A stretch of 32,000 nucleotides of DNA from positions 2,550,001 through 2,582,000 of the forward strand of contig NZ_RSDW01000001.1 of NCBI RefSeq assembly GCF_003945235.1, written 5' to 3'. This DNA comes from Edaphobacter aggregans. GTDB taxonomy: Bacteria > Acidobacteriota > Terriglobia > Terriglobales > Acidobacteriaceae. Both the position numbers and the translations under genes were made by a program. Under the pieces are notes generated by a model, which was not told the origin of the DNA, searched no databases, and saw nothing but the letters and a program-made list of their open reading frames with translations. Below, piece by piece: positions 1,265 through 22,481 of the stretch. Each line of letters starts with the position of its first letter. Position 1 is the stretch's first letter.

Positions 1265-1302
1265 ACTGGCTCGGCTTCCTTTGAGTTCTTATTTTTATAA
1301 AT

Positions 1303-2277: not shown

Positions 2278-2471
2278 ACTCCATGGATTGTTTCAGAACC
2301 AAGCCCTTTCGCCTCCTGAGTTTACGTTTGCCGGTTAAGACCTCGCTCATTCTCTTGAAGTGCGGGAAGAACCAAAATTTCTTGGACGATTTGTCGAACT
2401 CCGGTCCCGCGGTTCGTCGTTATAGTGAAGGCAGGGCAACGCCCGCCTGAAGACCATTACAGGAGAAGACA

Positions 2472-2810: not shown

Positions 2811-2920
2811 CAGAGGGCCAACGAAAGCAATGGAGCAGCAGTGGCGACACTGCCGGCCCGCTGAAGGCATCTATTTTTCAGACAGCTTCTAACTCAAAAA
2901 CTGCCTGGTCGGGAGGTGTC

Positions 2921-2990
2921 GGAGAAGAAGCCCACCCCGAAGATAGCTCTCCTATCCACCTTCTGGGCAGGAGATTTCCGCCGACAACAC
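2921..2990 (+). repeat. Copy 1 of a roughly 70-76 bp imperfect direct repeat (partner at 5050-5125)
   Basis: ggagaagaagcccaccccgaagatagctctcctatccaccttctgggcaggagatttccgccgacaacac aligns with 5050-5125 at roughly 80% identity by eye. The shared core is gatt(t)ccgccgacaacac. Confidence 0.7.
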
Positions 2991-3213
2991 CACCCACGCG
3001 TCCCATCTCACTCTCTATCAAAAATGGCACGACCCATAACGGAAAAAGCAGTAAACATCGGCTCAAAATCGCCAAACCTTAAGTTCGGCTTAAGACGATT
3101 TCATAGACGCTTCATCCCATCAGCCTCAAGACTCCGTTACGCTCCAACCGTGACTGCATACGCTACGGCAAACGTCATTGAATACCCGCAGCCCGCCGTC
3201 ACAGGAGGCTTCA

Positions 3214-4917
3214 ATGAACCAGATCCACACCGCTGCGAAGAGCGTCGCCATTTTTTCCTTGTGCGCACTTGCCGCCAGCATCCCATCCAACGCACAAGAC
3301 GGACGTTTCGACCGCGACCATGACTTCTTCTTCTACCCCGGCAATCTCGTCGTCAGCCGCAGCGTCTACGACAACAACCCCAACAACGTGAAGGTCGGCA
3401 CCATTCTTCCTCCCAACTGCGCCAGCACCACTGGCGGATGCTCCGCAGCGACCGGAGCTCCTTACAACGGTGCCTATCCCACTGTCTTCAACAACGACAT
3501 CTACGACGCCAACTTCGGCGTTACTTCAGCGATCTTCCTCGATCAGATCACTCCCTTCGGTTGGCGCATCAACACCCTCGAAGTTCCCAACAGTTCGCAG
3601 CGTGGCATCAAGAGCTCCAGCGATCAGCTTGTCACCAGCTTCAGCTCCAAGTCCGAGATCGCGCTCAACCTCTCTACCGACGGCCGCATCCTCACCTTCA
3701 TGGGCTACGTCTCGCCCATCGACGCCATCGACGTTTCGAACTCCAGCACTCCGGCAGCCGTCGACCCGACTGATCCGGTCGGCCTGAACACCTATCGCGC
3801 CGTCGCGACCGTCGACAGTACCGGACGCTTCACCTTCACCGAAACCAACGCCTACAGCGGAAACAACGGACGCGCCGCCATCCTCAACGACACCGACGGA
3901 GCCAACGTCATCTATACCGCCGGCAACGCAGGTAACGGATCAAACCCTCAGCCCAACGGCATCGTCCTCGGCGCGGGAGCCCAGTTCATCGAACCCGCAA
4001 CAGTTCCGGAGAGCTTCCAGACTCCCACCACACCCACCCCACTCTCCAGCTTCTCTGTGACCCTCCTCGGTGACAAGGCAGACAAGGTCGGCAAGGACGA
4101 CAACTTCCGCGGCCTCACCATCTTCAACGACGTCGTCTACTTCACCAAGGGAAGCGGCAGCAACGGCGTCAACACCGTCTACTTCGTCGACACCACCGGC
4201 ACCGCATGCCCCAAGGGCGTAGGCATCCCTGCCGTTGGAGCGAAGCTGCCCATCTCTCCGCTCACCTACGATCCCACCAAGCTCCAGACCACCGGCCTGC
4301 CCAGCAACATGTGTATCCTCGCCGGCTTCCCAACCGTGCTGGCAAAGAATGCCAACCCCGCGGCAGCTCCCTTCGGCATCTGGTTCGCCAACGCAGACAC
4401 CCTCTACGTCGCTGACGAAGGAGACGGCTACACGGGTGGCACCGACCTCTACACTCACGCCGCTGCCCAAACCACAGCCGGCCTGCAGAAGTGGGTCTTC
4501 AACTCCACTACCAGCACCTGGAGCCTCGCCTACACCCTTCAAACCGGCCTCGGTCTCGGTACGTCCTATACCGTCCACAACTATCCCACCGGCAACAATC
4601 CGGCAACCAATCTACCCTGGGCTCCCGCAACCGACGGTCTCCGCAACCTGACCGGCCACGTCGATCGCGATGGTCACGTCACGATCTGGGCCATCACCTC
4701 CACCATCAGCGGCAACGGAGACGTAGGCGCCGATCCCAACCGCCTGGTCGCCATTCGCGATCTGGTACAAAACTCCGATCCCACCGTGGCCGCCAAGGAG
4801 AGCTTCTATACGTTGCGTCAGGCCGACTACGCTGAGGTTCTACGCGGAGTCTCCTTCACCCCCGGAACCGATGTAGCCCACGACCGTCATGACTTCGATC
4901 ATGGCTACCACCACTAA
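3214..4917 (+). CDS. Large secreted protein of unknown function with a His-rich C-terminal tail
   Basis: The ORF track starts at 3178, but the ATG at 3214 follows AGGAGG and gives the signal peptide MNQIHTAAKSVAIFSLCALAASIPSNA|QDG. I recognise no family motif. It ends ...HDRHDFDHGYHH. Confidence 0.75.
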   Translation: MNQIHTAAKSVAIFSLCALAASIPSNAQDGRFDRDHDFFFYPGNLVVSRSVYDNNPNNVKVGTILPPNCASTTGGCSAATGAPYNGAYPTVFNNDIYDANFGVTSAIFLDQITPFGWRINTLEVPNSSQRGIKSSSDQLVTSFSSKSEIALNLSTDGRILTFMGYVSPIDAIDVSNSSTPAAVDPTDPVGLNTYRAVATVDSTGRFTFTETNAYSGNNGRAAILNDTDGANVIYTAGNAGNGSNPQPNGIVLGAGAQFIEPATVPESFQTPTTPTPLSSFSVTLLGDKADKVGKDDNFRGLTIFNDVVYFTKGSGSNGVNTVYFVDTTGTACPKGVGIPAVGAKLPISPLTYDPTKLQTTGLPSNMCILAGFPTVLAKNANPAAAPFGIWFANADTLYVADEGDGYTGGTDLYTHAAAQTTAGLQKWVFNSTTSTWSLAYTLQTGLGLGTSYTVHNYPTGNNPATNLPWAPATDGLRNLTGHVDRDGHVTIWAITSTISGNGDVGADPNRLVAIRDLVQNSDPTVAAKESFYTLRQADYAEVLRGVSFTPGTDVAHDRHDFDHGYHH

Positions 4918-4952
4918 CGATCTGGCATCCGGCAAGTAGAAACGGAACAAAC

Positions 4953-4996
4953 TAGTGGAGCAGGAAGCTAATCTTCTCTGCTCCACTAATTTTTGG
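4953..4996 (+). terminator. Rho-independent terminator downstream of 3214-4917
   Basis: tagtggagcag (4953-4963) pairs with ctgctccacta (4978-4988). An inner gaag/cttc extension adds to the stem, and atttttgg follows. Confidence 0.8.
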
Positions 4997-5049
4997 AACC
5001 ATCTCGAATCTCATCGCGCGCAAACAGAAAACCATCCACGCGGAGGCAT

Positions 5050-5125
5050 CAGAAAAGAACCCCCATCCCCTCAAGATAACTCTTCCCATCCGCCCACCTT
5101 AGGCATAAGATTCCGCCGACAACAC
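5050..5125 (+). repeat. Copy 2 of the roughly 70-76 bp imperfect direct repeat (partner at 2921-2990), immediately upstream of the cytochrome c gene
   Basis: cagaaaagaacccccatcccctcaagataactcttcccatccgcccaccttaggcataagattccgccgacaacac. It ends 11 nt before the ATG at 5137. Confidence 0.7.
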
Positions 5126-5136
5126 AGGAGCCTCAT

Positions 5137-5541
5137 ATGCTGCGGTCAACGTTCGTCTTCTCCGCGCTATTGCTCTCGGCCCTTTCGCCACAGCAACCCG
5201 CCGCCACCCCCGCCGCGCAGAGCATGCCAGCCGACGCCAAAACCCTCGTCAACCCAGTCAAACCCACGCCCGACTCCCAGGCCCGCGTCAAAAAGGTCTA
5301 CGGATACGACTGTGCTATGTGTCACGGAGCCAACGGCAACGGCAAAGGAGACGTCGTCGCCGACATGAAGCTCACCCTCAAGGACTACACCGACCCCGCA
5401 GCCCTCAAAGACCTCTCCGACGGCGAAATCTACTACGTCATCAAAAACGGCAAGGGCCAGATGCCCGGCGAAGGCGACCGCGCCAAACCCGACGATCTCT
5501 GGAACATGGTCATCCTCGTACGTTCCTTCTCCAAAAAGTAA
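5137..5541 (+). CDS. Class I c-type cytochrome (monoheme), exported
   Basis: 134 aa with an N-terminal signal, the heme-binding motif CAMCH, and a distal Met in GKGQMPG. AGGAG lies upstream of the ATG. Confidence 0.85.
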   Translation: MLRSTFVFSALLLSALSPQQPAATPAAQSMPADAKTLVNPVKPTPDSQARVKKVYGYDCAMCHGANGNGKGDVVADMKLTLKDYTDPAALKDLSDGEIYYVIKNGKGQMPGEGDRAKPDDLWNMVILVRSFSKK

Positions 5542-5672
5542 GTACCTCAGCCTTCTCCTCTCCAACTTCCGCGTCATTGCCGCGCCCACGGGGCCATGCT
5601 CTGCTGGTACTTTGACCGTGCAACAAAACCCTGAGAGGAGTGTTTGAGAGGTTCAGTAAATCATCTTTGCCC

Positions 5673-6770
5673 ATGCAACATCACAACGTCCCTCCTCTTC
5701 GCCACCAAACCCGGCGAATCTTCAGATGCCTCGCTCTCTGCCTGATCTTTGGCGGCCTGGTCGCTCACGCCAGCGCCCAACAACAGCCTTCCCAAAACAC
5801 TCAACTCCCCAGCGCACCCACCCCTCAATCCGCCTCCGGAAGTATCAGGGGCACCGTCACCGACTCCGACGGAGCCATCATCGCCGGAGCCCGCATCACC
5901 CTTACCCGCGAAAACCTCGCACCCTCCACCCAAGACCAGCAAACCATCTCCAGCACCGACGGAAGCTTCTCCTTCTCCCGAATCCCTCCCGGCCCCTTCA
6001 CCATCACCATCTCCGCCGCCGGATTCTCTCCCCGCCAACTATCCGGAACCCTCCAACCCGGCGAAAACTACGAGCCGTCTGTGATCTCCCTGCCGGAGGC
6101 CGCCACAATCATCGACATGCAGATTACCGCCTCGCCGCAGGAGGTGGCACAGGCACAGATCGAGGGCGAAGAAAAGCAGCGCGTCCTCGGCATCATTCCA
6201 AACTTCTACGTCAGCTATGTCTCTGACCCCGTCCCGCTCACCTCAAAACAGAAGTTCGAACTAGCCTGGAAGACCCTCATCGACCCCGTCACCTTCACAG
6301 CAACCGGATTCATCGCAGGCATCGAGCAAGCGCAGGACGACTTCGGCGGCTACGGACAAGGCGGACAGGGCTACGCCAAGCGCTACGCAGCCGCCTACGG
6401 AAACGCCATCGTCGGCACCGCCATCGGCAACGCCATCCTGCCCGCCATCCTCAAGCAGGACCCCCGCTACTTCTACAAAGGAACCGGCACCACCCGATCG
6501 CGCGCCCTTTACGCCATGGCAAACTCCGTCATCTGTAAAGGCGACAACGGACACTGGCAGCCCAACTACTCAGGCATCCTTGGCGGCGCGGCTGCAGGCA
6601 GCATCTCAAACTTCTACTACCCATCAGCCGACCGCAACGGCGCCACCCTGACCGTCGAAAATGCTGCACTCGGCATCGCCGGCAGCGCCATCCAAAATCT
6701 CTTTCAAGAATTCGTCGTCCGCAAGCTCACCCCCCACCTCCCTGACTACAAAACCCAGTCCGAGAACTAG
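5673..6770 (+). CDS. Secreted protein with a carboxypeptidase-regulatory-like (CarboxypepD_reg) N-terminal domain
   Basis: The ORF is open from GTG 5640. The ATG at 5673 gives the signal MQHHNVPPLRHQTRRIFRCLALCLIFGGLVAHASA|QQQ. GSIRGTVTDSDGAIIAGARITL...TDGSFSFSRIPPGPFTITISAAGF is the classic CarboxypepD_reg pattern. I do not recognise the C-terminal half. Confidence 0.75.
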   Translation: MQHHNVPPLRHQTRRIFRCLALCLIFGGLVAHASAQQQPSQNTQLPSAPTPQSASGSIRGTVTDSDGAIIAGARITLTRENLAPSTQDQQTISSTDGSFSFSRIPPGPFTITISAAGFSPRQLSGTLQPGENYEPSVISLPEAATIIDMQITASPQEVAQAQIEGEEKQRVLGIIPNFYVSYVSDPVPLTSKQKFELAWKTLIDPVTFTATGFIAGIEQAQDDFGGYGQGGQGYAKRYAAAYGNAIVGTAIGNAILPAILKQDPRYFYKGTGTTRSRALYAMANSVICKGDNGHWQPNYSGILGGAAAGSISNFYYPSADRNGATLTVENAALGIAGSAIQNLFQEFVVRKLTPHLPDYKTQSEN

Positions 6771-6903
6771 ACTTCATCACCCCCAACAAGTGTCATCCTG
6801 AGCGGAGATGTGCGCCTTTGCGCATCGGAATCAAAGAACCTGCTGTTTGCCAACACCAGCTACCAAGCTCACCTATTCAAAGCTCACGACTTAAACTCAC
6901 AGT

Positions 6904-8283
6904 TCACTTCGGCCCCCAAATCCGAAACTCCCCGCTGGCATGCAGCAGACTCATCATGTACAGCATGCCGTCGTAGTACCGGCTATACCCAGAAGGCACC
7001 GGAGCATTCCACAATGCATCCACAAACTCCCGCGCCCGCACCTTATCCTTCGCCGCAAGACTAGCCACCGCATTCGTCCCCACCAACCCAATCGGCGCAT
7101 CTGTCTCCGGCGTAAGCTTCGGCGTCGCCCCCTGCGCCTTCCCATCCAGCGTATACACCGGACTGTACTTCCCCATTCCCTCGGACGCAAAGAACCCCTG
7201 AATCCGATCGCTCAGCACCTGTTCCTCAGGATCCTTCCGCCACCACGACCAATCCACCGACCAGTTGCTAGGCGTCCGCCACGAGTCATACCCAAACTCC
7301 CCCGACTGCACAAACCGCGTCTCATGCGGAGTCCCATCGAAGTTCGCATACACCGGCGCCAGTCCTGTCTTCGGATTCGTCGCCTTCACAAAATACTCCC
7401 GGCTCACCTCCGCAGCCCGCGCCCAGAACTCGCGATCCTCCTCCGGACCCCATCGCGCCCAAAGCTCATAAAACGCCGGCAGATGATACGACGGATCGCT
7501 GAACGGATGCTCCATCACCCCCGGCACAAACAGAATCATCGCGTGCTCTTCATTCACCTCAGGACCAACCTTGCGCGGCCCAAACTTCGTCTGTCCGCTC
7601 TTCACCTCGCGATGCCGCATCGCCCGCAGCAGCCGTTCCGCCTCCGCATGATAGTCATAGATCCCCGTTCCACTCCCCCACCGATTCGCTGCAAACAGCA
7701 ACGACATCGCAAAATACTCCTCGCCATCCGGAGCAGGCGTCTCTTCCCTCGCCGTCCCATCCGTCTTGCACGACCACGAGAAGTATCCATACGAAGGATG
7801 CACCGGATCCGAGATGTACATATTCGTCATCACCCAATTCCACAGCGCGTCGAACTCTTCTTTCTTGTTCATCTGCACCGCGATCATCATCCCGTACGAC
7901 ATCCCCTCGGTTCGCACGTCATGATTCGCCCAGTCCGTCACATAACTCAGCGGACCATTCGCATTCTTCCCCGCTGCAAAGTAGATCGCCTGCGTCTCCC
8001 CATCGCCATGAAACAGCTGCTGGTAAGCCGCATTGATCTTCGCGTCAATCTCAGCCTGCGAGTGCCCCGCCTCCGCAAACAGATTGCGATACTTGCCCGT
8101 TTTATACGCACCCTTCCCATCATTCGAAGCGGCACGAGCAATGCCACTGCCGCACGCCAACCCAACAACGCACAGAGCCGATGCAACGCAATGAATTCCT
8201 CTACGCCATCTCCACCCACCCACCATCTTCCCAGGCCCATTCAAACCAAACATCCGCATCAACCTCATCAGCGAGCACAGCAA
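6904..8283 (-). CDS. Glycoside hydrolase family 8 (reducing-end xylose-releasing exo-oligoxylanase-like)
   Basis: GAYKTGKYRNLFAEAGHSQAEIDAKI...HDVRTEGMSYGMMIAVQMNKKEEFDALWNW closely follows the GH8 Rex-type N-terminal and catalytic region. A signal peptide is present. The true start may be an internal Met (for example MVGGWRWRR..., about 8226). Confidence 0.85.
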   Translation of the reverse strand: MLCSLMRLMRMFGLNGPGKMVGGWRWRRGIHCVASALCVVGLACGSGIARAASNDGKGAYKTGKYRNLFAEAGHSQAEIDAKINAAYQQLFHGDGETQAIYFAAGKNANGPLSYVTDWANHDVRTEGMSYGMMIAVQMNKKEEFDALWNWVMTNMYISDPVHPSYGYFSWSCKTDGTAREETPAPDGEEYFAMSLLFAANRWGSGTGIYDYHAEAERLLRAMRHREVKSGQTKFGPRKVGPEVNEEHAMILFVPGVMEHPFSDPSYHLPAFYELWARWGPEEDREFWARAAEVSREYFVKATNPKTGLAPVYANFDGTPHETRFVQSGEFGYDSWRTPSNWSVDWSWWRKDPEEQVLSDRIQGFFASEGMGKYSPVYTLDGKAQGATPKLTPETDAPIGLVGTNAVASLAAKDKVRAREFVDALWNAPVPSGYSRYYDGMLYMMSLLHASGEFRIWGPK

Positions 8284-8302
8284 CTAACGCTCTGTATTTG
8301 TA

Positions 8303-8321
8303 TCGAGTGTAGAACACTCGA
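8303..8321. promoter_or_regulatory. Perfect 8-bp-arm palindrome in the divergent GH8 / 8382 intergenic region (candidate operator)
   Basis: TCGAGTGT-aga-ACACTCGA lies between the divergently oriented starts at 8283 (or lower) and 8382. Confidence 0.3.
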
Positions 8322-8381
8322 GAAAACAACTCGCAGTTCTTCTTGGGACTCTAAATTCTTAGGAATTAGAGGAGAAAATAT

Positions 8382-8825
8382 ATGTCCCGATGGAAGTCGC
8401 TTGCCTTCTTTGCTCTCACCGTTGCACTGGTGAGCAGCGTGTCCGTGGCACCAGCTCAAGTTTCCATTAACATCGGAACGCCGCCCGTGTGCCCGTACGG
8501 TTACTTTGACTACGCCCCCTATAACTGCGCTCCCTATGGCTACTATGGGCCGGATTGGTTTACTGGCGGAGTATTCATCGGAGCTGGCCCCTGGTTCCAC
8601 GGCCCTCACGGCTTCTACGGCCACGTCGATAACCGCTACGATCCTCACCACGGTTACAACGGACCAATGCCGGAGCGCAACGAGCAGGCGTTCACTCACT
8701 TCCATGCGAACGAGGCGCGCGATGGACAAGGCCACGTCGGCAACGCAGGCCACAATCCAGGTGGTGAACACAGCGCCGGATTCCAGGGGCACGGCGGCGG
8801 TGGTCATAGCGGAGGTCACCACTAG
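8382..8825 (+). CDS. Small secreted Gly/His/Tyr-rich protein of unknown function
   Basis: 147 aa with GGAGAA upstream of the ATG and the signal MSRWKSLAFFALTVALVSSVSVAPA|QVS. The C-terminus is GHNPGGEHSAGFQGHGGGGHSGGHH. Confidence 0.7.
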   Translation: MSRWKSLAFFALTVALVSSVSVAPAQVSINIGTPPVCPYGYFDYAPYNCAPYGYYGPDWFTGGVFIGAGPWFHGPHGFYGHVDNRYDPHHGYNGPMPERNEQAFTHFHANEARDGQGHVGNAGHNPGGEHSAGFQGHGGGGHSGGHH

Positions 8826-8851
8826 AGATCGGCCCAATCCAGTGAACGCAG

Positions 8852-8882
8852 CCCGCTTCATGTGGAGCGGGTCCCTTTGTGT
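8852..8882 (+). terminator. Probable intrinsic terminator after 8382-8825
   Basis: cccgct (8852-8857) pairs with agcggg (8866-8871). The T-rich stretch tccctttgtgt follows. Confidence 0.45.
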
Positions 8883-8996
8883 CTCAACAGCCGAGTGCCC
8901 CATTCATGCAGCTTCATCGCATGAGTGAGGCATTCGTGCGAAGGCGAATCGCATTTCATCCCCGCCGCGAAACCCGCATAATAGAAGACGGCCATC

Positions 8997-9602
8997 ATGA
9001 AGAAACTAGGCATTCTCCTCTCCGGACGCGGCTCCAACTTCCTCGCCATTCATCGCGCCATCACCGAAGGCCGTCTCAACGCCGAGATCGCCATCGTCCT
9101 CTCCAACATCGAAGCCGCACCCGGCCTCGCCGCCGCACGAGAGCTCGGTCTGCCCACTCTCGCCATCCCCTCCGCAGGCCGCAGGCGCGCCGAGCACGAC
9201 GCCGAGATGATCGCCCAACTCCATCATTACGATGTCGACCTCGTCTGTCTCGCCGGCTACATGCGCATCATCTCACCCGCCTTCGTCGCCGCCTTCCCCA
9301 ACCGCATCCTCAACGTCCACCCATCGCTGCTCCCGGCCTTCCCCGGCCTCGACGCCCAGCACCAGGCCTTCAACCACGGAGCCAAAATCGCCGGCTGCAC
9401 CGTCCACTTCGTCGACGAGGCCGTAGACCACGGCGTCATCATCCTACAAAAGACCGTCCCCGTCCTCGACACCGACACCCCCGAAATCCTCTCCGCCCGC
9501 ATCCTCGAGCAGGAGCACATCGCCTATCCGGAAGCCATAGCCCAAGTCCTAAGCACCAACTACACCATCCAAAACCGCCGCTTTCTCCACAAAACTCCTT
9601 GA
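8997..9602 (+). CDS. purN: Phosphoribosylglycinamide formyltransferase
   Basis: 201 aa. GILLSGRGSNF..., VDLVCLAGYMRII, ILNVHPSLLPAFPG and GCTVHFVDEAVDHGVII are the canonical PurN motifs. Confidence 0.93.
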   Translation: MKKLGILLSGRGSNFLAIHRAITEGRLNAEIAIVLSNIEAAPGLAAARELGLPTLAIPSAGRRRAEHDAEMIAQLHHYDVDLVCLAGYMRIISPAFVAAFPNRILNVHPSLLPAFPGLDAQHQAFNHGAKIAGCTVHFVDEAVDHGVIILQKTVPVLDTDTPEILSARILEQEHIAYPEAIAQVLSTNYTIQNRRFLHKTP

Positions 9603-10039: not shown

Positions 10040-13000
10040 TTACTTGGCGTCCAAAGCATCGAGCAGAGCACGCGTCTCCGCCAGAACGTCTTCCGCCTTG
10101 GCGCTCGTAAGCGGCCAGCGCAAAACACCCTGCGGAGTGAACTGAGCCCCACGCTTCGTATTCCGGCTAACCAGTTTCATCAAAACCCCAGGATCGATGG
10201 ACCGAACATCGGAAGCGCCATCATTATTCCGCTCGGCGAACTTGATGTGAAGCATCTCGACAAACGTCTTGACCTTGTTCTGCTCCACCTGAGTACGCTT
10301 CCGGTCGATCTGAGCAATCCCAAGCTGCTGACAATGCAGCCGAATCTCACCCGCCGCAAGCAGGTTCAGCACCGACTCCGGAGGAGTGCCATACCGATCC
10401 TGCAACTCCGCCCGAACATCGGCGAGCGTAGCGTAATCCTCCGCTCCCGCGATGCGCTTATACATCCGCAGCCGCTGATTCTCCTCCGGAATGTAATCCG
10501 AGTCGATCCGCACACTGACGCCGAGATTGAGAACCGTAGTCGCGTGAGCAGGCTTGTCCTCCTCACCCTTCATCTTGCGCACGGCCTCCTCAAGCATGGT
10601 CGTATAAAGCTCGAACCCAATGGCCTCAATATGCCCAGACTGCTCGCCACCCAGCATATTGCCCGCTCCACGCAACTCCAGATCGAGCGCAGCGATCTTG
10701 AACCCGGCCCCCAAGTCAGAAAATTCTTTCAAAGCAGCCAAACGCCGCCGAGCAATCTCAGTAAGCTCCGTCTCCGGAGGAATCAACAGATAACTATAAG
10801 CGCGACGATTCGAACGCCCCACCCTCCCACGAAGCTGATAAAGCTCCGAGAGCCCATGACGATCCGCACGATTAATAATGATCGTGTTCGCCAGCGGAAT
10901 ATCAAGCCCGTTCTCGATGATGCTCGTCGCAACCAGCACATCGTACTCATGGTTCATGAACGCCAGCATCACCCGCTCAAGCTCCGCCTCCGGAAGCTGC
11001 CCATGACCAATAACGATACGCGCCTGAGGCACAAGCTCACGTATCTTCGAGGCAAGATCATAGATCGTCTCAACGCGATTGTGGACAAAGTAGATCTGAC
11101 CGCCCCGCTCCAACTCCATCTCAATCGCAGTGCGCAGCAGCTTCTCATCGAACTTCGCCACAATCGTCTGAATCGCCATGCGATCCTTCGGCGGAGTTTC
11201 GATCACCGACATATCGCGCAGGCCAACCAGCGACATATGCAGCGTTCGCGGAATCGGCGTAGCCGACATAGCAAGCACATCGATCGCGGTCCGCATCTGC
11301 TTCAGCCGCTCTTTATGCCGAACGCCGAACCGCTGCTCCTCATCCACAACGAGCAAACCGAGATCCTGAAACTTGAGATCCTTCGACAACAGCCTGTGCG
11401 TGCCAATAAGGATATCGACCTTGCCCTGCTCCACCTTCTCAAGGATCTCCTTCTGCTCCTTCGGCGTACGAAAGCGCGAGATCATCTCGATGTTCACAGG
11501 GAAGTTGGCAAAGCGGCGCTTGAATGACTCATAGTGCTGGAACGACAGCACAGTAGTAGGAGTCAGCACAGCGACCTGCTTCGAGTCCTGCACAGCTTTG
11601 AAGGCAGCTCGCATGGCAACTTCGGTCTTCCCATAACCAACATCACCGCAGAGCAGTCGATCCATAGGCTGCGTCGATTCCATATCGCGCTTGATATCGG
11701 CAATGGCAGTCAACTGATCGTCAGTCTCGTTGAAGTCGAAGGCATCTTCAAACTCACGCTGCATGTTGGTGTCTGGCGAGAAAGGAGTGCCCTGAATGGA
11801 CTCGCGCTGAGCATAGAGCTTGAGCAGCTCGGCGGTCATATCCGCCATCGCCTTCTTGACCCGAGCCTTCGTCTTCTGCCACGACTGACTTCCCAGCTTA
11901 TTGAGCTGCGGCGCAGGACCAGTATCGGTCGACCGGTACTTCTGGATCAGATCCAACCGTGTCAGCGGAACATAGAGCTTAGCCTCGTCGGCAAACTCTA
12001 AGATCATCAACTCAAGCGGCGGAGCATCGTTCTCTTCAATCACCCGCAGCCCGCAATACTGGGCGATGCCATGTTCGACGTGAACTACGTAATCTCCAAC
12101 GGCGAGGTCCCGGAAGTCAGAGATGAAGGCAGCAGTCTTGGACTTGCTGCGTCGAACGGGACGAGCAGAGACATCAGCTTCGTCCGATAAATCCTGCGCG
12201 CCGAAGATGATGATCTGACTGGCGGTAGTCTTATTGAGGTCAAGTATCTGTACGCCAGCAGCAATCGCTGTCTTAACGATGACCGGCGTACGCAGGTCTC
12301 CAGCTAGATAACTAGACTCGCTGTAGACGGTCGAACTCCCGTGTGCCTCGCTGCGAGAGCCTAAGCGATATGGCAGTTGATACTCCTGAAGCAGGCCAGC
12401 AAGGCGCTCGACCTCACCTTGATTAGGCGCGGTAAGCAGGATACGCGCATCCTGTTTCATGAGCACGTTGAGGGCATCAATCAACGCAGGGATAGAACCA
12501 TGGAAGCGCTGCGTAGGACGGGTTGCAAAGTCTACTTCGGAAAGATCGCTGCGATCCGCATCGAGGATGTCTACTGCGCCGAGCTGATCGAGTTCGCAGC
12601 CAGTGAAACGCCGGAGCCGGTCGTCGAGGTCCCAGGGAGAGAGATAGATGTCTTCCGGGCGGACGAGATTGCCTATACCGGATCGGTCATGCCGCTGCTC
12701 AACCTTGTTCCACCAGCGCTCACCCTGATTCTTGACCATGGCAGGCTCTTCGATGAACACACGAGTCGAAGGACCGAGCAGGTCGAGCAGGGTCTGATTC
12801 GCTCCGGCAACAGGCGCAAAAAACTCCCATCCGGGAAAGACCGTCGCTTCACCAGTGCGCGTAGCAACATGGGTTTGGAGCTCGACAGGTTCTTCACCGC
12901 CCTCAAGCGCCGCTCCAGCTGCACCTGCGCGGGTGAGACGAGCGTTGATCGCAGACAAAAGCTTTTCAGTAACAGGTGTTTCGGTCAGCGGAAGAAGAAG

Positions 13001-13702
13001 AGCGTCGTCAAGCGGCGACGAAGAACGCTGCGTCTCAGGATCGAACTTGCGGATGGATTCGATCTCGTCACCAAAGAAGTCGATGCGAACCGGTCGATCC
13101 TGCTCGGGAGAATAGACATCAATGATCCCGCCGCGGATGGTGACCTGGCCGGGCATCTCGACGACGTCGACGCGGGTGTATCCGACGGAGAGCAGATGCT
13201 CAACAAGCATATCGGGAAGGTGCTCTTCCCCTACCCGAAGATGAAGCGCAAGGGCGCGGTAGTAGTCGCGGGAGAAGAGCTTCATGCAGGCTGCTTCTAC
13301 CGGAGCAATAATGAGGCGCGGGGAACTGGATTGATGGCTTATCTTCCACAGCGTAGCAGCGCGCGTCTCCTGGATCTCGGAGTGGGGAGATAGGTTTTCG
13401 AATGGTAGGACATCATGGGCCGGAAGGCGGAGTACGGATTCGGCTGGAAGGGCTCCCGTGAGTTCGCAGGCAGCGAGAACGGCGGCGTGGAGGGCCTCGG
13501 CGGCCTTGTTGTCCGGAACGATGATGACTGACGGAGCAGCGGCTGCATGGACGAAGTAGGGCAGGTAAAGGGCGCGCGCGGTTGCGGTCAGTCCGGACAC
13601 ACGACGGCGGCCCGTGCCTCCGCTCAGGTGGCGGCGTACACGCTCGAACGCTTCAGAGTGTTCAAGGTCCGCGAGGAGTTCACGGACGAAGGGGAGAACC
13701 AT
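10040..13702 (-). CDS. mfd: Transcription-repair coupling factor
   Basis: Intact 1220-aa ORF. It contains the UvrB-homology N-terminus, the CarD/TRCF RNAP-interacting region (FISDFRDLAVGDYVVHVEHGIAQY), helicase motifs (LLCGDVGYGKTEVA, DEEQRFGV, SATPIPRT) and a TRG-type motif region (QLRGRVGRS). Confidence 0.97.
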   Translation of the reverse strand: MVLPFVRELLADLEHSEAFERVRRHLSGGTGRRRVSGLTATARALYLPYFVHAAAAPSVIIVPDNKAAEALHAAVLAACELTGALPAESVLRLPAHDVLPFENLSPHSEIQETRAATLWKISHQSSSPRLIIAPVEAACMKLFSRDYYRALALHLRVGEEHLPDMLVEHLLSVGYTRVDVVEMPGQVTIRGGIIDVYSPEQDRPVRIDFFGDEIESIRKFDPETQRSSSPLDDALLLPLTETPVTEKLLSAINARLTRAGAAGAALEGGEEPVELQTHVATRTGEATVFPGWEFFAPVAGANQTLLDLLGPSTRVFIEEPAMVKNQGERWWNKVEQRHDRSGIGNLVRPEDIYLSPWDLDDRLRRFTGCELDQLGAVDILDADRSDLSEVDFATRPTQRFHGSIPALIDALNVLMKQDARILLTAPNQGEVERLAGLLQEYQLPYRLGSRSEAHGSSTVYSESSYLAGDLRTPVIVKTAIAAGVQILDLNKTTASQIIIFGAQDLSDEADVSARPVRRSKSKTAAFISDFRDLAVGDYVVHVEHGIAQYCGLRVIEENDAPPLELMILEFADEAKLYVPLTRLDLIQKYRSTDTGPAPQLNKLGSQSWQKTKARVKKAMADMTAELLKLYAQRESIQGTPFSPDTNMQREFEDAFDFNETDDQLTAIADIKRDMESTQPMDRLLCGDVGYGKTEVAMRAAFKAVQDSKQVAVLTPTTVLSFQHYESFKRRFANFPVNIEMISRFRTPKEQKEILEKVEQGKVDILIGTHRLLSKDLKFQDLGLLVVDEEQRFGVRHKERLKQMRTAIDVLAMSATPIPRTLHMSLVGLRDMSVIETPPKDRMAIQTIVAKFDEKLLRTAIEMELERGGQIYFVHNRVETIYDLASKIRELVPQARIVIGHGQLPEAELERVMLAFMNHEYDVLVATSIIENGLDIPLANTIIINRADRHGLSELYQLRGRVGRSNRRAYSYLLIPPETELTEIARRRLAALKEFSDLGAGFKIAALDLELRGAGNMLGGEQSGHIEAIGFELYTTMLEEAVRKMKGEEDKPAHATTVLNLGVSVRIDSDYIPEENQRLRMYKRIAGAEDYATLADVRAELQDRYGTPPESVLNLLAAGEIRLHCQQLGIAQIDRKRTQVEQNKVKTFVEMLHIKFAERNNDGASDVRSIDPGVLMKLVSRNTKRGAQFTPQGVLRWPLTSAKAEDVLAETRALLDALDAK

Positions 13703-13846
13703 TCTTCTGCAATTTTAGTGGAAGCGTGTGCCAGCACTGCTGCAACAGGAGTAATATCTTGCATCCGCAGGGAATAAACCTGCGCCGCTGCCCGATTTAT
13801 CGGGGCCCCGGGTGACTCGGACAGCATGTTTCGTTGGAGGTTGACG

Positions 13847-14845
13847 ATGAGCATGTGGAGTAAAGGCGTCATCTTAGCGATCATGGCAGTTCTTCCCCTT
13901 CTGGAAGGATGCGCGCGGCATAGCAAGAGCGAGCGCTACTACCTTATTGCCACAAACACCAGCCTGCCGTACTGGAAGACAGCTGCCGAAGGGTTCCAAA
14001 CAGCTGGCGCCAAATATGGTGTTACGACGGACGTACGGGGGCCGGCGACGTTTGATCCTCAGGCCGAAGTGGAAGAGTTCCGCAAGGCGGTAGCGCAAAA
14101 GCCTGCGGGAATTCTGGTGTCGGTAGCGAGCTCGCAGTTGATGGTTCCGGAGATTGATGCCGCGCTGGCAGCGGGGATTCCGGTGATCACGATGGACTCG
14201 GATGCTCCAGAGAGCAAGCGGCTGTACTTTATCGGCACAAATAATCTTGAGGCGGGCCGCCTGGGTGGTCACCGTGTAGTGGCACAGTTGAATGGCAAGG
14301 GAAACGTGGTGTTCTTCAGCAATCCGGGACAGCCAAATCTGGATGAGCGGCTGAAGGGTTATAAGGATGTGTTCTCCTCCTATCCGGGAATCAAGATTGT
14401 GGAGGTGTTCGACATCAAAGGAGAGTCGGGCTCGGCTTTCGACAAGGCCGAGGAGTATCTGACGAGAACCGGTCCGGCGAAGATCGATGCATTTATCTCC
14501 CTCGAGTCCGCTTCAGGCCGCGATGTGGGAGAGGCGGCGAAGCGGGCTAAGGCTAAGGGCGATGCGGGTAGGCTGGTCGTGGCCATGGATAGCGACGCAG
14601 CCACCCTACAGTCAATCAAGGACGGAAACGTCGACTCAACCGTTGCTCAAAAGCCTTACACGATGGCATTTCTTGGACTCAAGGCGCTGGATGATATCTA
14701 TCACTATCCTGTGAAACCTCTAGCGGCAGACTATGCGCTCGACCCGTTCGCTCCTTTTCCAGCACTCATCGACACGGGAGTCGCGCTGGTGGATAAGAGT
14801 AACGTGGAGGCGATTCTGACCCGGAAGGAGGCTGCGGGGCCATAG
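13847..14845 (+). CDS. Periplasmic sugar-binding-type ABC substrate-binding lipoprotein (PBP type I fold), orphan
   Basis: The ORF is open from 13826. The ATG at 13847 lies 6 nt after GGAGG. The lipobox is LLEGC. IATNTSLPYW..., PAGILVS, IPVITMDSD, YFIGTNNLEAG and VAQKPYTMAF are typical of ribose/AI-2-type binding proteins. No permease or ATPase gene is adjacent. Confidence 0.8.
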   Translation: MSMWSKGVILAIMAVLPLLEGCARHSKSERYYLIATNTSLPYWKTAAEGFQTAGAKYGVTTDVRGPATFDPQAEVEEFRKAVAQKPAGILVSVASSQLMVPEIDAALAAGIPVITMDSDAPESKRLYFIGTNNLEAGRLGGHRVVAQLNGKGNVVFFSNPGQPNLDERLKGYKDVFSSYPGIKIVEVFDIKGESGSAFDKAEEYLTRTGPAKIDAFISLESASGRDVGEAAKRAKAKGDAGRLVVAMDSDAATLQSIKDGNVDSTVAQKPYTMAFLGLKALDDIYHYPVKPLAADYALDPFAPFPALIDTGVALVDKSNVEAILTRKEAAGP

Positions 14846-15278: not shown

Positions 15279-16769
15279 ATGTCTACCGCTACTATGCTTT
15301 CGCCTGAGATTCTTGCCAAGTACCAGCCTGTGATTGGGCTGGAGGTCCATGTTCAGCTATTGACGGAGTCGAAGGCCTTCTGCGGGTGCATCAATCAGTA
15401 CGGCGGTGAACCGAATACGCATGTTTGCCCAACGTGCCTGGGGTTGCCGGGAGCGCTGCCGGTTCTGAATCGCAAGGCTGTGGAGTTTGCCGTGCTCGCA
15501 GCGAAGGCGATCAACTGCGAGATTCGCGAGACGAGCATCTTTTCGCGGAAGAATTATTTTTATCCGGATTCCCCGAAGGGGTATCAGATATCGCAGTTTG
15601 ATAAGCCGATTGCGGAGCATGGTTGGATTGAGGTTCCAGCGTTCGATGCTGCGGGTGCGGCGATTACGAAGCGAGTTGGCGTGACGCGTCTCCACATGGA
15701 GGAAGACGCGGGCAAGAGCGTACACGATGGGTTCGCTGATTCGGTTTCGAAGACCTATATCGACCTGAACCGATGCGGGACGCCGCTGGTGGAGATTGTG
15801 AGCGAGCCCGATCTGCGGACCGCCGATGAGGTGTTCGAGTACCTGACGAAGCTGAAAGAGATTCTGCTGTACACGGGCGTGAGCGACTGCAACATGGAAG
15901 AGGGTTCGCTGCGCTGCGATGCGAATGTGAGCGTGATGCTGAAAGGCGCGAAGCAGTTCGGCACAAAGGCCGAGGTGAAGAACGTCAACAGCTTCCGATA
16001 TATTCGCGCGGCGGTGGAGTACGAGATTGAACGGCAGATTGGCGTGATTGAAGAAGGCGGCAGGGTGGTGCAGGAGAGCCGGCTTTGGAATAACGCAGAG
16101 GGCCGGACGTACTCGATGCGCTCGAAGGAGCAGGCGCATGATTATCGGTATTTTCCGGAGCCGGATTTGCCGCCGCTGGTCGTGGGAGCTGAGTGGCAGG
16201 CGGAGATTCTAAAGGAGATGCCTGAGCTTCCGGAGGCGCGGCGAGCGCGCATGATCGCGGAGTATGAGATTTCGGCACAGGATGCGGCCACGCTGACGGC
16301 TACGCGGGCGTTCGCAGATAAGTTTGAGACGGCAGCCAAGAAGGCGAAGAGTCCAAAGCGTGTGGCTGCGCTGCTGACGAGCGAGTTGACGATGCGTCTG
16401 CGGCTGGCGGGATTGGAGTTGGAGCAGTCTCCGGTCTCGATGGATGGGGTCGTGATGGCCGCGGATCTGGCGGAGTCGGGCGAGCTTTCAAGCAAGATGC
16501 TGAAGCAGCTGCTGGATATCAGCTTCGAGAAGAACGAGGATTTCCCTGTTGTGTATGAGCGGGAGAAGCCGCAGCAGATCTCGGATGCCGGTGCGATCGA
16601 GAAGATGATCGATGAAGTGATTGCAGGAAATCCGAAGCAAGTGGAGCAGTATCGCTGCGGAAAGAAGACGGTGGCGGCGTTCTTTGTGGGGCAGGTGATG
16701 CGGCTGTCAAAGGGTCAGGCTAATCCTGCGCTGCTCAATGAACTGGTGGTGAAGAAGCTGGATAGTTAG
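15279..16769 (+). CDS. gatB: Asp-tRNA(Asn)/Glu-tRNA(Gln) amidotransferase subunit B
   Basis: 496 aa. VIGLEVHVQL, CPTCLGLPGALPVLN, RKNYFYPD, TRLHMEEDAGKS, NRCGTPLVEIVSEPD, RCDANVS and the C-terminal GatB/YqeY domain all match. Confidence 0.97.
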   Translation: MSTATMLSPEILAKYQPVIGLEVHVQLLTESKAFCGCINQYGGEPNTHVCPTCLGLPGALPVLNRKAVEFAVLAAKAINCEIRETSIFSRKNYFYPDSPKGYQISQFDKPIAEHGWIEVPAFDAAGAAITKRVGVTRLHMEEDAGKSVHDGFADSVSKTYIDLNRCGTPLVEIVSEPDLRTADEVFEYLTKLKEILLYTGVSDCNMEEGSLRCDANVSVMLKGAKQFGTKAEVKNVNSFRYIRAAVEYEIERQIGVIEEGGRVVQESRLWNNAEGRTYSMRSKEQAHDYRYFPEPDLPPLVVGAEWQAEILKEMPELPEARRARMIAEYEISAQDAATLTATRAFADKFETAAKKAKSPKRVAALLTSELTMRLRLAGLELEQSPVSMDGVVMAADLAESGELSSKMLKQLLDISFEKNEDFPVVYEREKPQQISDAGAIEKMIDEVIAGNPKQVEQYRCGKKTVAAFFVGQVMRLSKGQANPALLNELVVKKLDS

Positions 16770-16813
16770 GCTGCGAACTTTCCAGAACAGTCCGCTTGAG
16801 GTTTAATGGGCGG

Positions 16814-18361
16814 ATGAAAATGCGCTCTTGGTTACTTGGGAGTGTTTGGCGCGTCGCCTCGTCGGTAATTTTGCTGACTGTGATCGGTTGCAATTGGGCC
16901 GAGATAGGCTACTCAGTGCCTGAGGGGCCGCTGCCTCCGAATACAATCCTGTTCTCACAGATGATGCGGGAGCTGTCGGCGACGCCGGGATTCACGGATG
17001 CGATGCTCGCGCATCTGAACGAAGCCCAAAAAAATGGGCCCGCGCTAATGACCCCGAGATTAGTTAGCCGGCTAAAAAGAATGATGATCGGCCGGGACTG
17101 GCAGGGGATGAATCGATTCCCTGGGTGGACCATGCGTGCACTGAATCCGACGGCAAATATTGCCAACAGGTTGGTGAACGGTCGGAGTAACGGCCCCGAC
17201 GGGGCTGTAGAAGAACCGGCGGGCGACAAAAAATCTTTAGAAGAGGCCAAAAAGTGGGTCGATGTAGAGACGTACCCATTGGACAAAGAAGTAACGATAA
17301 GTCTCGATGAGCCTTCCACGCTGCCGCCTTTCTCGACCGAAGATGTAATGACCAACGTGGGGGCCGGAGTGACCGTGAGGGATGGCGCGGACCCGGTTCG
17401 CGCACCGATGCATCCTGAAAGCCAGCGACTGGTGAATGTGCTGAATCGGGTGAGTCTGAATGGAGTGGAAGGCTCAGCTGTTGCAACGGCGACTATTGGA
17501 GGAAAGAACGCGACGACGCCGGAGGCGTTGATACAGGCGCTGATGGATACAGGACACACCGTGGTTGTGCATGACGGGCGGTACTTCGCCAACTTCGGAC
17601 ACTTCCATTTCCACGGGCAGGAAGTGATCATGCCATTCTGGCTGAACATGCAGATGCTTGTGCCGGGAACGGTGAGGCCGCTGCTTGTTCCAGCAAGCCA
17701 TGCTGAGTATGAATGGCAGGTTCGCGGTCCGAAGATCAATGCAGATGTGAGTTGGTTTTTCGGGGTCGACGGGAAGGCTGAGTTTCGAACGATGGACTCC
17801 CTGAGCCAGGCCTGGGTGTTGGGCCGGAATGCTCATGAGTATCGCGGGGCGGATGCTGTGGAGGTAACACGGCTGATTGGACGGATGTCGGTTGCCTATG
17901 CGCACCAGCATATTCGGCGACCGGAGTTGCCGTTCGGCGGATACTATCCGCTCGGCGTGTGCCAGGATGCGGTGGCGGCGATCGAGAAGAAGATGACTGG
18001 TAAGGTGACGCTGTTCCCGATTACGGCGGATATGTCGCTGTTTGATGACCCTCGCGATGAGGAAGTGAATGCGCTGATGCGCGCCACGCCCAACGACAGG
18101 GAGGGAGGCATGCCCGAACCGGAGCGAGTCTTTGGATCGTTGCCGACGACAGACTTTAACGCAGTTACGATTCCCGGATTGGCAGCGGATCTGGTAGCAA
18201 CGCACAACGCCTGGGAGAACGGATCGCTGATACGAACTCCAAATTGGGTTGGAAAGCTGGCGGCGCAGTTGATCAGCGGCACTGTGCTGACAATGCTGGT
18301 GGTAATCATTGCACTGGTAGTACGCAAGCGGAGGAAGAAGAGACAGGTGACAGCATCGTAA
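16814..18361 (+). CDS. Large lipoprotein-like protein of unknown function with a C-terminal transmembrane anchor
   Basis: The ORF is open from TTG 16796; ATG candidates are 16814 and 16820. The N-terminus is MKMRSWLLGSVWRVASSVILLTVIGC (lipobox-like VIGC). The C-terminus is LISGTVLTMLVVIIALVVRKRRKKRQ. I recognise no family. Confidence 0.65.
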   Translation: MKMRSWLLGSVWRVASSVILLTVIGCNWAEIGYSVPEGPLPPNTILFSQMMRELSATPGFTDAMLAHLNEAQKNGPALMTPRLVSRLKRMMIGRDWQGMNRFPGWTMRALNPTANIANRLVNGRSNGPDGAVEEPAGDKKSLEEAKKWVDVETYPLDKEVTISLDEPSTLPPFSTEDVMTNVGAGVTVRDGADPVRAPMHPESQRLVNVLNRVSLNGVEGSAVATATIGGKNATTPEALIQALMDTGHTVVVHDGRYFANFGHFHFHGQEVIMPFWLNMQMLVPGTVRPLLVPASHAEYEWQVRGPKINADVSWFFGVDGKAEFRTMDSLSQAWVLGRNAHEYRGADAVEVTRLIGRMSVAYAHQHIRRPELPFGGYYPLGVCQDAVAAIEKKMTGKVTLFPITADMSLFDDPRDEEVNALMRATPNDREGGMPEPERVFGSLPTTDFNAVTIPGLAADLVATHNAWENGSLIRTPNWVGKLAAQLISGTVLTMLVVIIALVVRKRRKKRQVTAS

Positions 18362-18420
18362 CGGTGGCGATGCAACTCGGTGTCTTCGTGCTGCCCTCTT
18401 AGAGAAGAGGGAGAATAGCT

Positions 18421-18696
18421 ATGGCCACGAAGAAGGCAACGAAGAAGAAGTCCGTGAAGAAGACCGCGGCGAAAAAGGCGCCTGCCAAGAAGACTACTGC
18501 GAAGAAGGCGAGTTCGACGCGCAAGTACGGCACGTCGGTAGGCAAGGACGTCGAGCGCGAGATGAAGGCGATGAAGCAGGGCAAGCTGACGAGCGGGCGT
18601 AGCGGAAAGAAAGTGACAAGCCGCAAACAAGCGATTGCGATCGCATTATCCGAAGCGCGTAAAGAAGGAAAGAAGGTTCCTCCGCCACCAGAATAA
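18421..18696 (+). CDS. Small basic protein with a histone H1-like Lys/Ala repeat N-terminus fused to a DUF6496-like C-terminus
   Basis: 91 aa, beginning MATKKATKKKSVKKTAAKKAPAKKTTAKKA. The following ...GKLTSGRSGKKVTSRKQAIAIALSEARKEGKKVP is the conserved SRKQAIAIxLSEAR signature of that small-protein family, recalled from memory. GGGAGAA lies upstream. Confidence 0.65.
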   Translation: MATKKATKKKSVKKTAAKKAPAKKTTAKKASSTRKYGTSVGKDVEREMKAMKQGKLTSGRSGKKVTSRKQAIAIALSEARKEGKKVPPPPE

Positions 18697-18725
18697 TTGC
18701 GAAGACTTCAGCGGCAGGGTAAGGG

Positions 18726-19055
18726 CTATTTCTTGTCGGAGCTGGCGGCCGGAGCTGGGGTTGATGTTGTTGTAGACGCGGCTGGAGCGGAGCTAGCCGA
18801 AGAGCTTTCGGAGCTGGAGGACGATTTGCCCGAGTCCGATGAGGAGCTTTTGCTCTCGCTGGAGGATTTTGGCTTGGCGTTGCCGTAGCCGTCGGCATAC
18901 CAGCCTCCGCCTTTGAAGCTGACGGCGGGCGCAGAGAGGACGCGCTCGAGATGGCCGCTGCAGTGGGGGCAGATGGTGATCTCGGGGTCAGAGAATTTCT
19001 GGATCTTTTCCGTGCGCTCGTGGCACTCGGTGCATTCGTATTCGTAAAGCGGCAT
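18726..19055 (-). CDS. FmdB-family zinc-ribbon protein with a Ser-rich tail
   Basis: The MPLYEYECTEC...ICPHCSG...RVLSAP motif (two CxxC pairs) is followed by a low-complexity Ser/Ala/Thr tail. Confidence 0.85.
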   Translation of the reverse strand: MPLYEYECTECHERTEKIQKFSDPEITICPHCSGHLERVLSAPAVSFKGGGWYADGYGNAKPKSSSESKSSSSDSGKSSSSSESSSASSAPAASTTTSTPAPAASSDKK

Positions 19056-19145
19056 TTTGCGGTGTTTCCTTGCTTATAGCTTATCGAAGTTGGCGGATTT
19101 TCTGTAAGGCGGAGGACTCTGAGTGCGGGCTCAGAGCCCTCGTTG

Positions 19146-20774: not shown

Positions 20775-21013
20775 TGGCAGAAACCTTCCAAGAACTGAGT
20801 TTTGCTGGTGGAGGTATACCCCCACCCCTAGCTAAATTGTGCAAAGTCTTCAAAAAAGGAGACTTAGGTTTGGACTTAGGGGCTTATCCGGTGGGATTTC
20901 CGCGCAAAGTCTTCGAACCATGAGAGTTGTCCGAGCAGGGAGTAGCACTCTTAAATGGCTCCAGATCATTGTAGCGAATGGGGCGAGTTTGCTCAGGATG
21001 GGGTCCGATGTTG

Positions 21014-21047
21014 GCAAAACAAAAATCCCCAGCCTTAGCTGAGGATT
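21014..21047 (-). terminator. Strong hairpin terminator (bidirectional in appearance) after the Hcp-like gene
   Basis: aatccccagc (21024-21033) pairs with gctgaggatt (21038-21047), with one G-U pair. On the minus strand tttttgttttg follows; on the plus strand ctttttgg follows. Confidence 0.8.
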
Positions 21048-21067
21048 CTTTTTGGATTTGTGGCGAG

Positions 21068-22463: not shown

Positions 22464-22481
22464 CGGACTTTAGCTTCTGGC

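Follow-up and report, generated by a model that had tools for sequence, protein, structure and literature searches.

An abrupt strand-composition switch inside an intact mfd gene of Edaphobacter aggregans

The mfd gene, which encodes the transcription-repair coupling factor, lies in a 32,000-nucleotide stretch of the Edaphobacter aggregans contig NZ_RSDW01000001.1 (positions 2,550,001 to 2,582,000; this whole stretch is called the window), and the strand composition of the DNA switches abruptly inside it. Our analysis confirmed that the switch is real and that the gene carrying it is intact. We are inclined, with some reserve, to read the seam as the trace of a mosaic mfd that arose by an old recombination and was later joined by a breakpoint at the mfd stop codon, and not as an origin of replication within the gene.

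Composition was measured as GC3 skew, the skew of G against C at third codon positions, expressed on the + strand along the window and in the gene sense where the two halves of mfd are compared between genomes. The maximum-likelihood single change point over the third-position G/C sites of 15 window genes falls at position 12,053, codon 551 of mfd, where the skew passes from -0.53 to +0.43; its 2-log-likelihood interval is 19 nt wide (Table 1) and the 100:1 interval spans 12,029-12,080. A fit restricted to mfd returned the identical position with a log-likelihood gain of 42.4, which was reached by none of 500 permutations within the gene. An earlier note on this DNA, made from the letters alone, had placed the flip near codon 545, at about 12,060, only a few codons away. 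The sliding-window check that it proposed gave the same picture, as the GC skew of all bases in 1-kb windows ranges from -0.25 to -0.35 at 3-10 kb, crosses zero at about 12 kb and ranges from +0.2 to +0.3 at 15-30 kb. The uninterrupted open reading frame (ORF) of 1220 amino acids encodes all the Mfd domains in order (UvrB_inter, CarD_TRCF_RID, DEAD, Helicase_C, TRCF), and the product is 76-98% identical to about 150 Acidobacteriaceae Mfd proteins, with the best matches in Edaphobacter, Granulicella and Terriglobus. In the gene sense, the third positions of the 3' segment consist of 3% A, 21% C, 47% G and 29% T. The seam lies about 18 residues into the RNA polymerase (RNAP)-interacting domain (RID, amino acids 533-589) and not, as had been supposed, at the junction between the UvrB-homology and the RNAP-interacting modules. 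Within this domain it occupies a less conserved spacer of 20 codons flanked by two conserved blocks; the expectation that a crossover would sit in the most conserved stretch of mfd was given up.

The two flanks are of opposite composition regardless of gene orientation, as the per-gene GC3 skews on both strands show. To the left, where the window holds a CarboxypepD_reg protein, GH8 and purN, values were -0.66 for the gene at 3178-4917(+), -0.63 for 5640-6770(+), -0.64 for GH8(-) and -0.74 for purN(+). To the right lie the genes for a periplasmic binding protein (PBP), gatB, a hypothetical protein, serA, glutamine cyclotransferase, glutathionylspermidine synthase and an aminotransferase, and here we obtained +0.46 for gatB(+), +0.54 for serA(-), +0.55 for 21696-22463(-) and +0.51 for 27644-29773(-). 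The magnitude of the bias, about -0.65 in the left block and +0.35 to +0.55 in the right, is unusual, as had been remarked. Along the + strand the composition thus changes from lagging-type to leading-type at 12,053, which is the polarity of an origin. Both mfd halves are less skewed than the flanks (0.27 and 0.38 vs about 0.5 and 0.65), and on the + strand the 3' half, at -0.38, is unlike the left block at about -0.65.

The same seam was found in two relatives from independent assemblies. L081, a 103.5-kb JGI soil-metagenome contig (Ga0070734_10000360) with 97.2% DNA identity to window positions 9766-23713 (13.9 kb), runs across the seam and changes at the identical position, with skews of -0.31 and then +0.35. 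The nearest genome locus, L001, stands on a 740-kb contig of an uncultured Acidobacteriaceae metagenome-assembled genome from another project and is 85% identical to the window in DNA and 97-98.5% in protein; its change point is at codon 556 [538-591], with the skew going from -0.44 to -0.05, a step of 0.39. L001 has only mfd and the PBP gene in common with the window, the flanks on both sides being unrelated and its far flanks of reverse polarity. Third-position identity between the window and L001 is 0.5-0.67 and equally low in both halves of mfd, and thus the seam is older than this deep split. The third positions that remained unchanged between the two have a skew of -0.39 in the 5' half and +0.26 in the 3' half, so that their common ancestor already carried a step of about 0.65. 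About 150 other relatives show a uniform skew along mfd, mostly -0.6 to -0.8 in the gene sense and positive in a few. A separate step, from -0.36 to -0.03 at codon ~386, was observed in the mfd of the cultured isolate E. aggregans DSM 19364 (L058).

The earlier note had proposed separate phylogenies for the two parts of the gene, and we built protein neighbour-joining (NJ) bootstrap trees for codons 1-545 and 556-1220. In the first part, the window and L001 together are sister to L002/L003 (clade A) in 63% of the bootstraps, vs 6.5% in the second. There they group with clades B/C and not with L002/L003, the sister being the clade of L004, L005, L006 and L010 in 40% and the group of L058, L009 and L015, with or without L013 and L037, in 27%. 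The indels, which are free of base-composition bias, agree with the trees: the 5' half has the clade-A indels at codons ~122-125 and ~309, and the 3' half lacks clade-A-specific indels and shares with clade B the state of a 1-residue indel at ~1166. The halves may differ in affinity as a mosaic gene would require, although attraction by shared composition is possible and no close donor came to light. In clade B the entire gatB-PBP-mfd block has a weakly reversed skew, and an allele of this type is plausible as the kind needed as donor of the 3' half. When 3'-half protein distance was regressed on 5'-half distance across 153 relatives, there was no close outlier, the best being L006 with 94% vs 86%. 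Synonymous-site identity beyond composition was rejected as a donor test, since distant lineages with positive skew also score high in the 3' half, a sign of convergence. Altogether, the evidence favours a hybrid gene formed by recombination or by homologous replacement from an oppositely replicated relative, one of the candidates named in the note; a sharp internal breakpoint, placed to within 19 nt, that leaves a 1220-residue frame intact and recurs in the independent L081 and L001 is what such a gene would display.

We then turned to the recent substitutions between the window and L081, counting unpolarised third-position transitions among the 365 differences and comparing them with the steady state of the reference pairs L002/L082 and L003/L084, which lie in uniformly skewed blocks. 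At this steady state, transitions per base are 0.45 times as frequent at the abundant third-position base as at the rare one (n=175). Polarising the differences by distant outgroups was dropped, as a control run showed it to be biased by the outgroups' own skew, and we therefore relied on the unpolarised counts. In the mfd 5' half, G on the + strand takes 76% of the recent transitions vs 45% expected at steady state, and at 15.3-20.8 kb it takes 81% vs 55% (ratios for all regions in Table 1). Changes of the 5' half polarised with L001 comprise 24 C>T vs 6 T>C in the gene sense. Third-position T in the gene sense amounts to 26-29% in both mfd halves of the window and L081, to 15% in L001 and to 4-6% in L002. 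The ratio of G<->A to C<->T exceeds 1 on both sides of the seam, and the present mutational asymmetry thus does not change its sign at 12,053, as far as small and unpolarised counts can tell. The G-richness of the right block appears to be decaying, and its orthologues are more strongly skewed in L002/L003 than in the window. The GC3 skew of the PBP gene, about +0.5 in L002/L003, lies between +0.18 and +0.21 in the window, L081 and L001. Divergence between the window and L081 varies between adjacent genes from 1.1% (gatB) to 4.9% (20.8-23.7 kb) and is 3.9% vs 1.6% in the two halves of mfd, which indicates ongoing strain-level recombination; the 4.9% divergent stretch is probably a strain-level import.

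A second discontinuity lies at the mfd stop codon, where homology between the window and L001 ends exactly. The upstream order PBP-gatB-hypothetical-serA is conserved across the family (the PBP gene is syntenic in 32-34 relatives), and the downstream side of the window is unique. In no relative examined were the left-flank genes of the window found downstream of mfd, and both the window and L001 lack the downstream genes typical of the family (a small gene, DUF885 and NTP_transferase). In L163, GH8 and purN share a contig, are arranged and oriented relative to each other as in the window, and have skews of equal sign and strength; the gene after purN there encodes an HtrA-like protease and is not mfd. 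The purN-mfd spacer of the window has no homology to the spacers downstream of purN in L161 or L163. This spacer contains a perfect 7-nt microsatellite, (ACCTGAT)x12.6, at 9741-9828, inside which contig L081 ends, 278 bp past mfd; the repeat may vary in length, or disrupt assembly, at the point where synteny is lost. The synteny break at 10,040 is 2 kb away from the skew change point, and only by assigning the 3' half of mfd to the incoming block would the two be brought together.

We propose that the single clean flip could be a composite of two layers of history in a genome with an extreme replication-linked mutation bias. In the older layer, homologous recombination with a crossover near codon 551, before the split from L001, would have created the mosaic gene. 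Its 5' half would derive from the family-typical allele, transcribed head-on to replication and C-rich in the gene sense, and its 3' half from an allele that had long been in the opposite replication orientation and was G-rich in the gene sense; the reading frame would have been preserved because the exchange was homologous. In the younger layer, after the L001 split and before the L081 split, a rearrangement with its breakpoint at the mfd stop codon, a breakpoint recurrent in the family, would have put the strongly C-rich block with GH8, purN and their neighbours beside mfd. Since the 3' half was already of the sign of the left block, the visible boundary would come to lie 2 kb inside the gene. 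The recent substitutions partly show what the present state would be, one sign of asymmetry across the seam, over at least 10-20.8 kb, with the - strand prone to C-to-T changes. Given such uniform asymmetry, the excess of G in the right block and the mfd 5' half would be a decaying record of an earlier direction of replication and not a sign of diverging forks. What produced the flip is most likely nothing out of the ordinary: recombination and rearrangement, recorded by a mutational bias of unusual strength.

Several points weigh against this two-layer history. It needs two events, and the agreement in sign between the left block and the 3' half is then a 1-in-2 coincidence. No close donor, with more than 94% protein identity in the 3' half, is present among the sampled relatives, and distant positive-skew lineages also appear closer in that half. 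As shared skew can pull protein trees and synonymous sites together, the phylogenetic incongruence is only moderate evidence. The adjacency of the left block to mfd is shown by the window alone, because L081 ends in the microsatellite. In the test on recent substitutions each region contributes 18-92 unpolarised transitions and two pairs serve as reference, and the stretch at 20.8-23.7 kb, with a ratio of 0.58, looks like steady state. Finally, an origin would explain the strong skew of both flanks without any argument about timing, and its prior is raised by the position of mfd beside dnaA and rpmH-rnpA-yidC in part of the family.

Of the alternatives, a simpler one is a single inversion or translocation within the genome through homologous recombination between mfd copies of opposite orientation (or with a partial copy), which would have formed the hybrid gene and brought in the C-rich flank together, L001 having replaced its downstream flank later. 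Recombination of the tufA/tufB type does yield intact hybrid genes at the ends of inversions, and one event would account both for the intragenic seam and for the agreement in sign between left block and 3' half. The family-typical downstream genes are missing from the window and L001 alike. Nevertheless, we hold it to be unlikely. The seam is older than the split of the window from L001, after which third positions diverged by about 40%. Over such a time a block in an unsuitable context should have lost its skew, but the left block stands undecayed at about -0.65 and the 3' half at -0.38; two layers suit this timing and this inequality of skew better. In addition, window/L001 homology ends exactly at the stop codon, GH8 and purN have no mfd nearby in L163, and no second copy of mfd was seen, one locus per genome having been recovered and no search having been aimed at a second copy. 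An assembly chimera would have fused, within a conserved gene, two related populations whose mfd is replicated in opposite senses; this would suit the fact that conserved genes are typical mis-join points in metagenome assemblies, and L081 does break 278 bp past mfd. However, the presence of the seam in both L081 and L001 practically excludes it as far as the seam is concerned: the former is a separate assembly, 2.8% divergent, that spans the seam with an equal step, the latter belongs to another species and project and has its change point at the same codon, and window/L001 divergence is similar in the two halves. We also regard as very improbable an effect intrinsic to the gene, whereby codon usage, amino-acid usage or mutation linked to transcription would set the halves apart while ancestry and replication context stayed unchanged. 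Nearly all relatives do show a step of 0.1-0.15 near codons 540-590, several of them having weak change points there, but the step is 0.65 with a change of sign in the window and 0.39 in L001. Moreover, flanking genes on both strands follow the same skew domains, synonymous divergence is equal in the two halves and the skew of mfd is uniform in about 150 relatives.

The remaining alternative is a genuine present-day divergence of forks, at a chromosomal origin or at leading-strand start points, within or immediately beside mfd, with the flanks as the two replichores. The origin-type polarity, the strong and long domains (C-rich over 12 kb or more, G-rich over 20 kb or more) and the steady state of the substitutions in the mfd 3' half speak for it, and in the Granulicella-like clade mfd lies 1-3 kb from the jag-dnaA-rpmH-rnpA-yidC cassette, and the skew there shifts weakly to positive where mfd ends on its 3' side. 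Still, we consider it improbable. A scan of the 32-kb window for DnaA boxes gave 7 scattered TTATCCACA-like sites with at most 1 mismatch, where 3.7 were expected, none of them clustered, although this consensus may not be that of the family; around the purN-mfd spacer the sole such site is at 9583, where the last part of purN matches with one mismatch. Clusters were likewise missing from all 80 relatives' loci scanned. DnaA, Jag and RnpA had no tblastn match in the window, although 19-23 relatives carry them beside mfd, a search of the window for YidC gave no match, and the switch lies in conserved coding sequence with no non-coding AT-rich unwinding element at the site. Furthermore, the mfd halves are far below the skew of the flanks, which is unexpected beside a long-standing origin because the mfd of relatives does reach flank skew, and in L001 the same seam is surrounded by DNA of reversed polarity. 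At 12.05-20.8 kb, where the DNA is G-rich, the recent transitions match the asymmetry of the C-rich side and are off the steady state (p=3e-6), which indicates one present-day asymmetry across the seam. In the Edaphobacter clade dnaA is not within 10 kb of mfd, most members have a skew that is still negative well past mfd, and flips of both polarities are common in the family. In all, the polarity of an origin is present; a DnaA-box cluster in a non-coding AT-rich region, linkage to dnaA/dnaN or rpmH-rnpA-yidC and a change in the sign of mutational asymmetry were not seen. An active origin, or its leading-strand start sites, in this conserved housekeeping coding sequence or no more than about 2 kb from it, which would descend from an ancestral mfd-dnaA-oriC neighbourhood and have neither dnaA nearby nor a recognisable DnaA-box cluster, is improbable, and the flip as a marker of an origin or of a nearby fork-divergence point, a possibility raised by the note, is not supported.

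The neighbourhood of mfd in the family bears on this question. In the Granulicella-like clade, mfd is followed within 1-6 kb by jag(R3H), dnaA, rpmH, rnpA and yidC, as in L063:13782-19991 and about 20 further loci (L046, L047, L048, L118, L121-L123, L128-L134, L137, L138 and L140-L142), which implies that mfd was ancestrally origin-proximal and pointed toward the origin. In the Edaphobacter clade, including the window, a small gene, DUF885 and NTP_transferase stand in place of the cassette, with dnaA not within 10 kb and, in most members, a skew that is still negative well past mfd; this suggests that the dnaA/origin cassette was relocated there. Skew change points near dnaA in the Granulicella-like clade were dropped as a guide to the distance between switch and oriC, the skew being too weak (0 to 0.3). 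The dnaA-rpmH spacers of 16 relatives (e.g. L063:16288-16806) contain no repeated box and no cluster of canonical DnaA boxes; the invariant single-copy blocks TAAGCGGGTTTGATAGTAGCACG and TTGCACCATTCCTTGTGAAG occur in 16/16 of these spacers and are absent from the window, and could serve as promoter elements or as an origin element of non-canonical type.

Both the strength of the skew and its local reversals vary widely in the family. The GC3 skew ranges from about 0 to about 0.8 among close relatives, being 0.6-0.8 in many Edaphobacter-/Granulicella-like genomes (e.g. L002, L019, L039, L073) and near zero in the close relatives L005, L015, L048, L065 and L077, and the strength of strand bias appears to be a fast-evolving trait. 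In a survey of 2015, Acidobacteria came out as the phylum with the lowest strand bias (PMC4613354). Across 2.87 Mb of the relatives' loci we counted 30 strong sign flips (17 negative-to-positive, 13 in reverse), far above the one origin and one terminus expected per chromosome of 4-5 Mb. The earlier note had stated that many equivalent local flips unrelated to replication would undo the origin meaning of this one, and such flips do occur in the relatives. Five of them lie well inside other intact genes (Table 1); intragenic compositional seams are recurrent in the family.

Mosaic housekeeping genes produced by homologous recombination between diverged alleles are known from penA/pbp and from tufA-tufB exchange. 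Like such genes, the mfd of the window combines an intact frame, a sharp breakpoint, segments that seem to have different nearest relatives and conserved flanking blocks. Unlike them, its parents are distinguished mainly by replication-strand composition and not by sequence divergence, and its seam is old (about 40% third-position divergence since) yet sharp, with no close donor among the sampled relatives. With an oriC skew switch it shares the polarity from C-rich to G-rich, the long domains on both sides and an mfd that was ancestrally beside dnaA and rpmH-rnpA-yidC; in contrast to oriC, the switch is in coding sequence, has no DnaA-box cluster, unwinding element or dnaA, and the sign of asymmetry is unchanged across it. 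Amelioration of transferred or inverted DNA is likewise a known process. Local reversals of GC skew have been taken as a record of inverted genes or segments (Merrikh & Merrikh 2018, PMC6220195), and this inference from skew reversal has been criticised (Liu & Zhang 2022, PMC9098844). As in cases of skew reversal and amelioration, a skew contrary to the present direction of replication is read here as a fossil whose decay is visible in recent substitutions. It differs from the skew-reversal cases in that the signal changes within one gene, its amplitude is far larger (GC3 skew 0.4-0.7) and the direction of decay can be checked against a sister sequence that is 97% identical.

By itself, this locus is one more mosaic gene and one more scar of rearrangement, and its interest lies mainly in the phenomena of the family. 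In many Edaphobacter-/Granulicella-like genomes the bias is so strong (GC3 skew 0.5-0.8) that recombination seams and switches in the direction of replication, even intragenic ones, can be read to about 20 nt, and the decay of the signal can be tracked between strains. Close relatives with near-zero skew, frequent flips of both polarities and an mfd-dnaA neighbourhood broken up in one clade make the family a natural system for studying how fast strand composition re-equilibrates, how often the direction of replication changes and what determines the strength of the bias. For genome scans it follows that a flip of origin polarity, in lineages with such strong skew, does not testify to an origin.

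Table 1. Features of the window, recent third-position transitions between the window and L081, and flips inside other intact genes of relatives
Feature	Position	Strand	Evidence or composition	Per-base (G<->A)/(C<->T), + strand
Left block, C-rich on + strand	1..9602		confidently called genes with GC3 skew of -0.47 to -0.74	
purN-mfd spacer and synteny breakpoint at mfd stop codon	9603..10039		window/L001 homology, neighbour comparison	
mfd (transcription-repair coupling factor), intact, 1220 aa	10040..13702	-	Pfam domains, all above curated cut-offs	
mfd 3' segment, codons 551-1220, G/T-rich in gene sense	10040..12053	-	GC3 skew +0.38 (gene sense)	3.35, fits steady state (p=0.48)
Compositional seam, GC3-skew change point	12047..12065		codons 546-554 of mfd; likelihood change point, 2-log-likelihood interval	
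mfd 5' segment, codons 1-550, C-rich in gene sense but decaying	12054..13702	-	GC3 skew -0.27 (gene sense)	1.71, departs from steady state (p=1e-4)
PBP gene, conserved upstream neighbour of mfd	13826..14845	+	Pfam Peripla_BP_4	1.02, departure not significant
Right block, G-rich on + strand, family-typical synteny (gatB, hypothetical, serA onward)	15279..32000		GC3 skew mostly +0.34 to +0.55	
gatB to serA	15.3-20.8 kb			1.53, departs (p=0.002)
Pooled region	12,054-20,825			1.32, departs (p=3e-6)
Stretch within right block	20.8-23.7 kb			0.58, fits steady state (p=0.44)
NTP_transferase	L021:7235-8140		intragenic flip	
YidC	L063:17745-19988		intragenic flip	
NTP_transf_5	L067:7960-9093		intragenic flip	
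M20 peptidase	L073:21202-22533		intragenic flip	
URO-D	L113:4427-5719		intragenic flip	

A few minor features of the window were also recorded. An Rfam search of the window gave no match, and the sole tRNA call falls in a coding gene: this ARAGORN call of tRNA-Pro(ggg) at 22937-23020, on the opposite strand within the glutathionylspermidine synthase ORF and without Rfam support, is probably a false positive. Two ORFs have a GC3 skew contrary to their block, 8268-8903 (+0.12 in the C-rich block) and 31110-31550 (-0.18 in the G-rich block), and are either spurious genes or recent arrivals. Finally, an island at ~480-3150, absent from the earlier note, shows near-zero GC skew inside the C-rich left block and has no ORF with the usual enrichment of GC at third positions; its ORF 494-1264(-) has a match to TrbI (conjugation) below the Pfam cut-off, and the island may be a mobile-element remnant.

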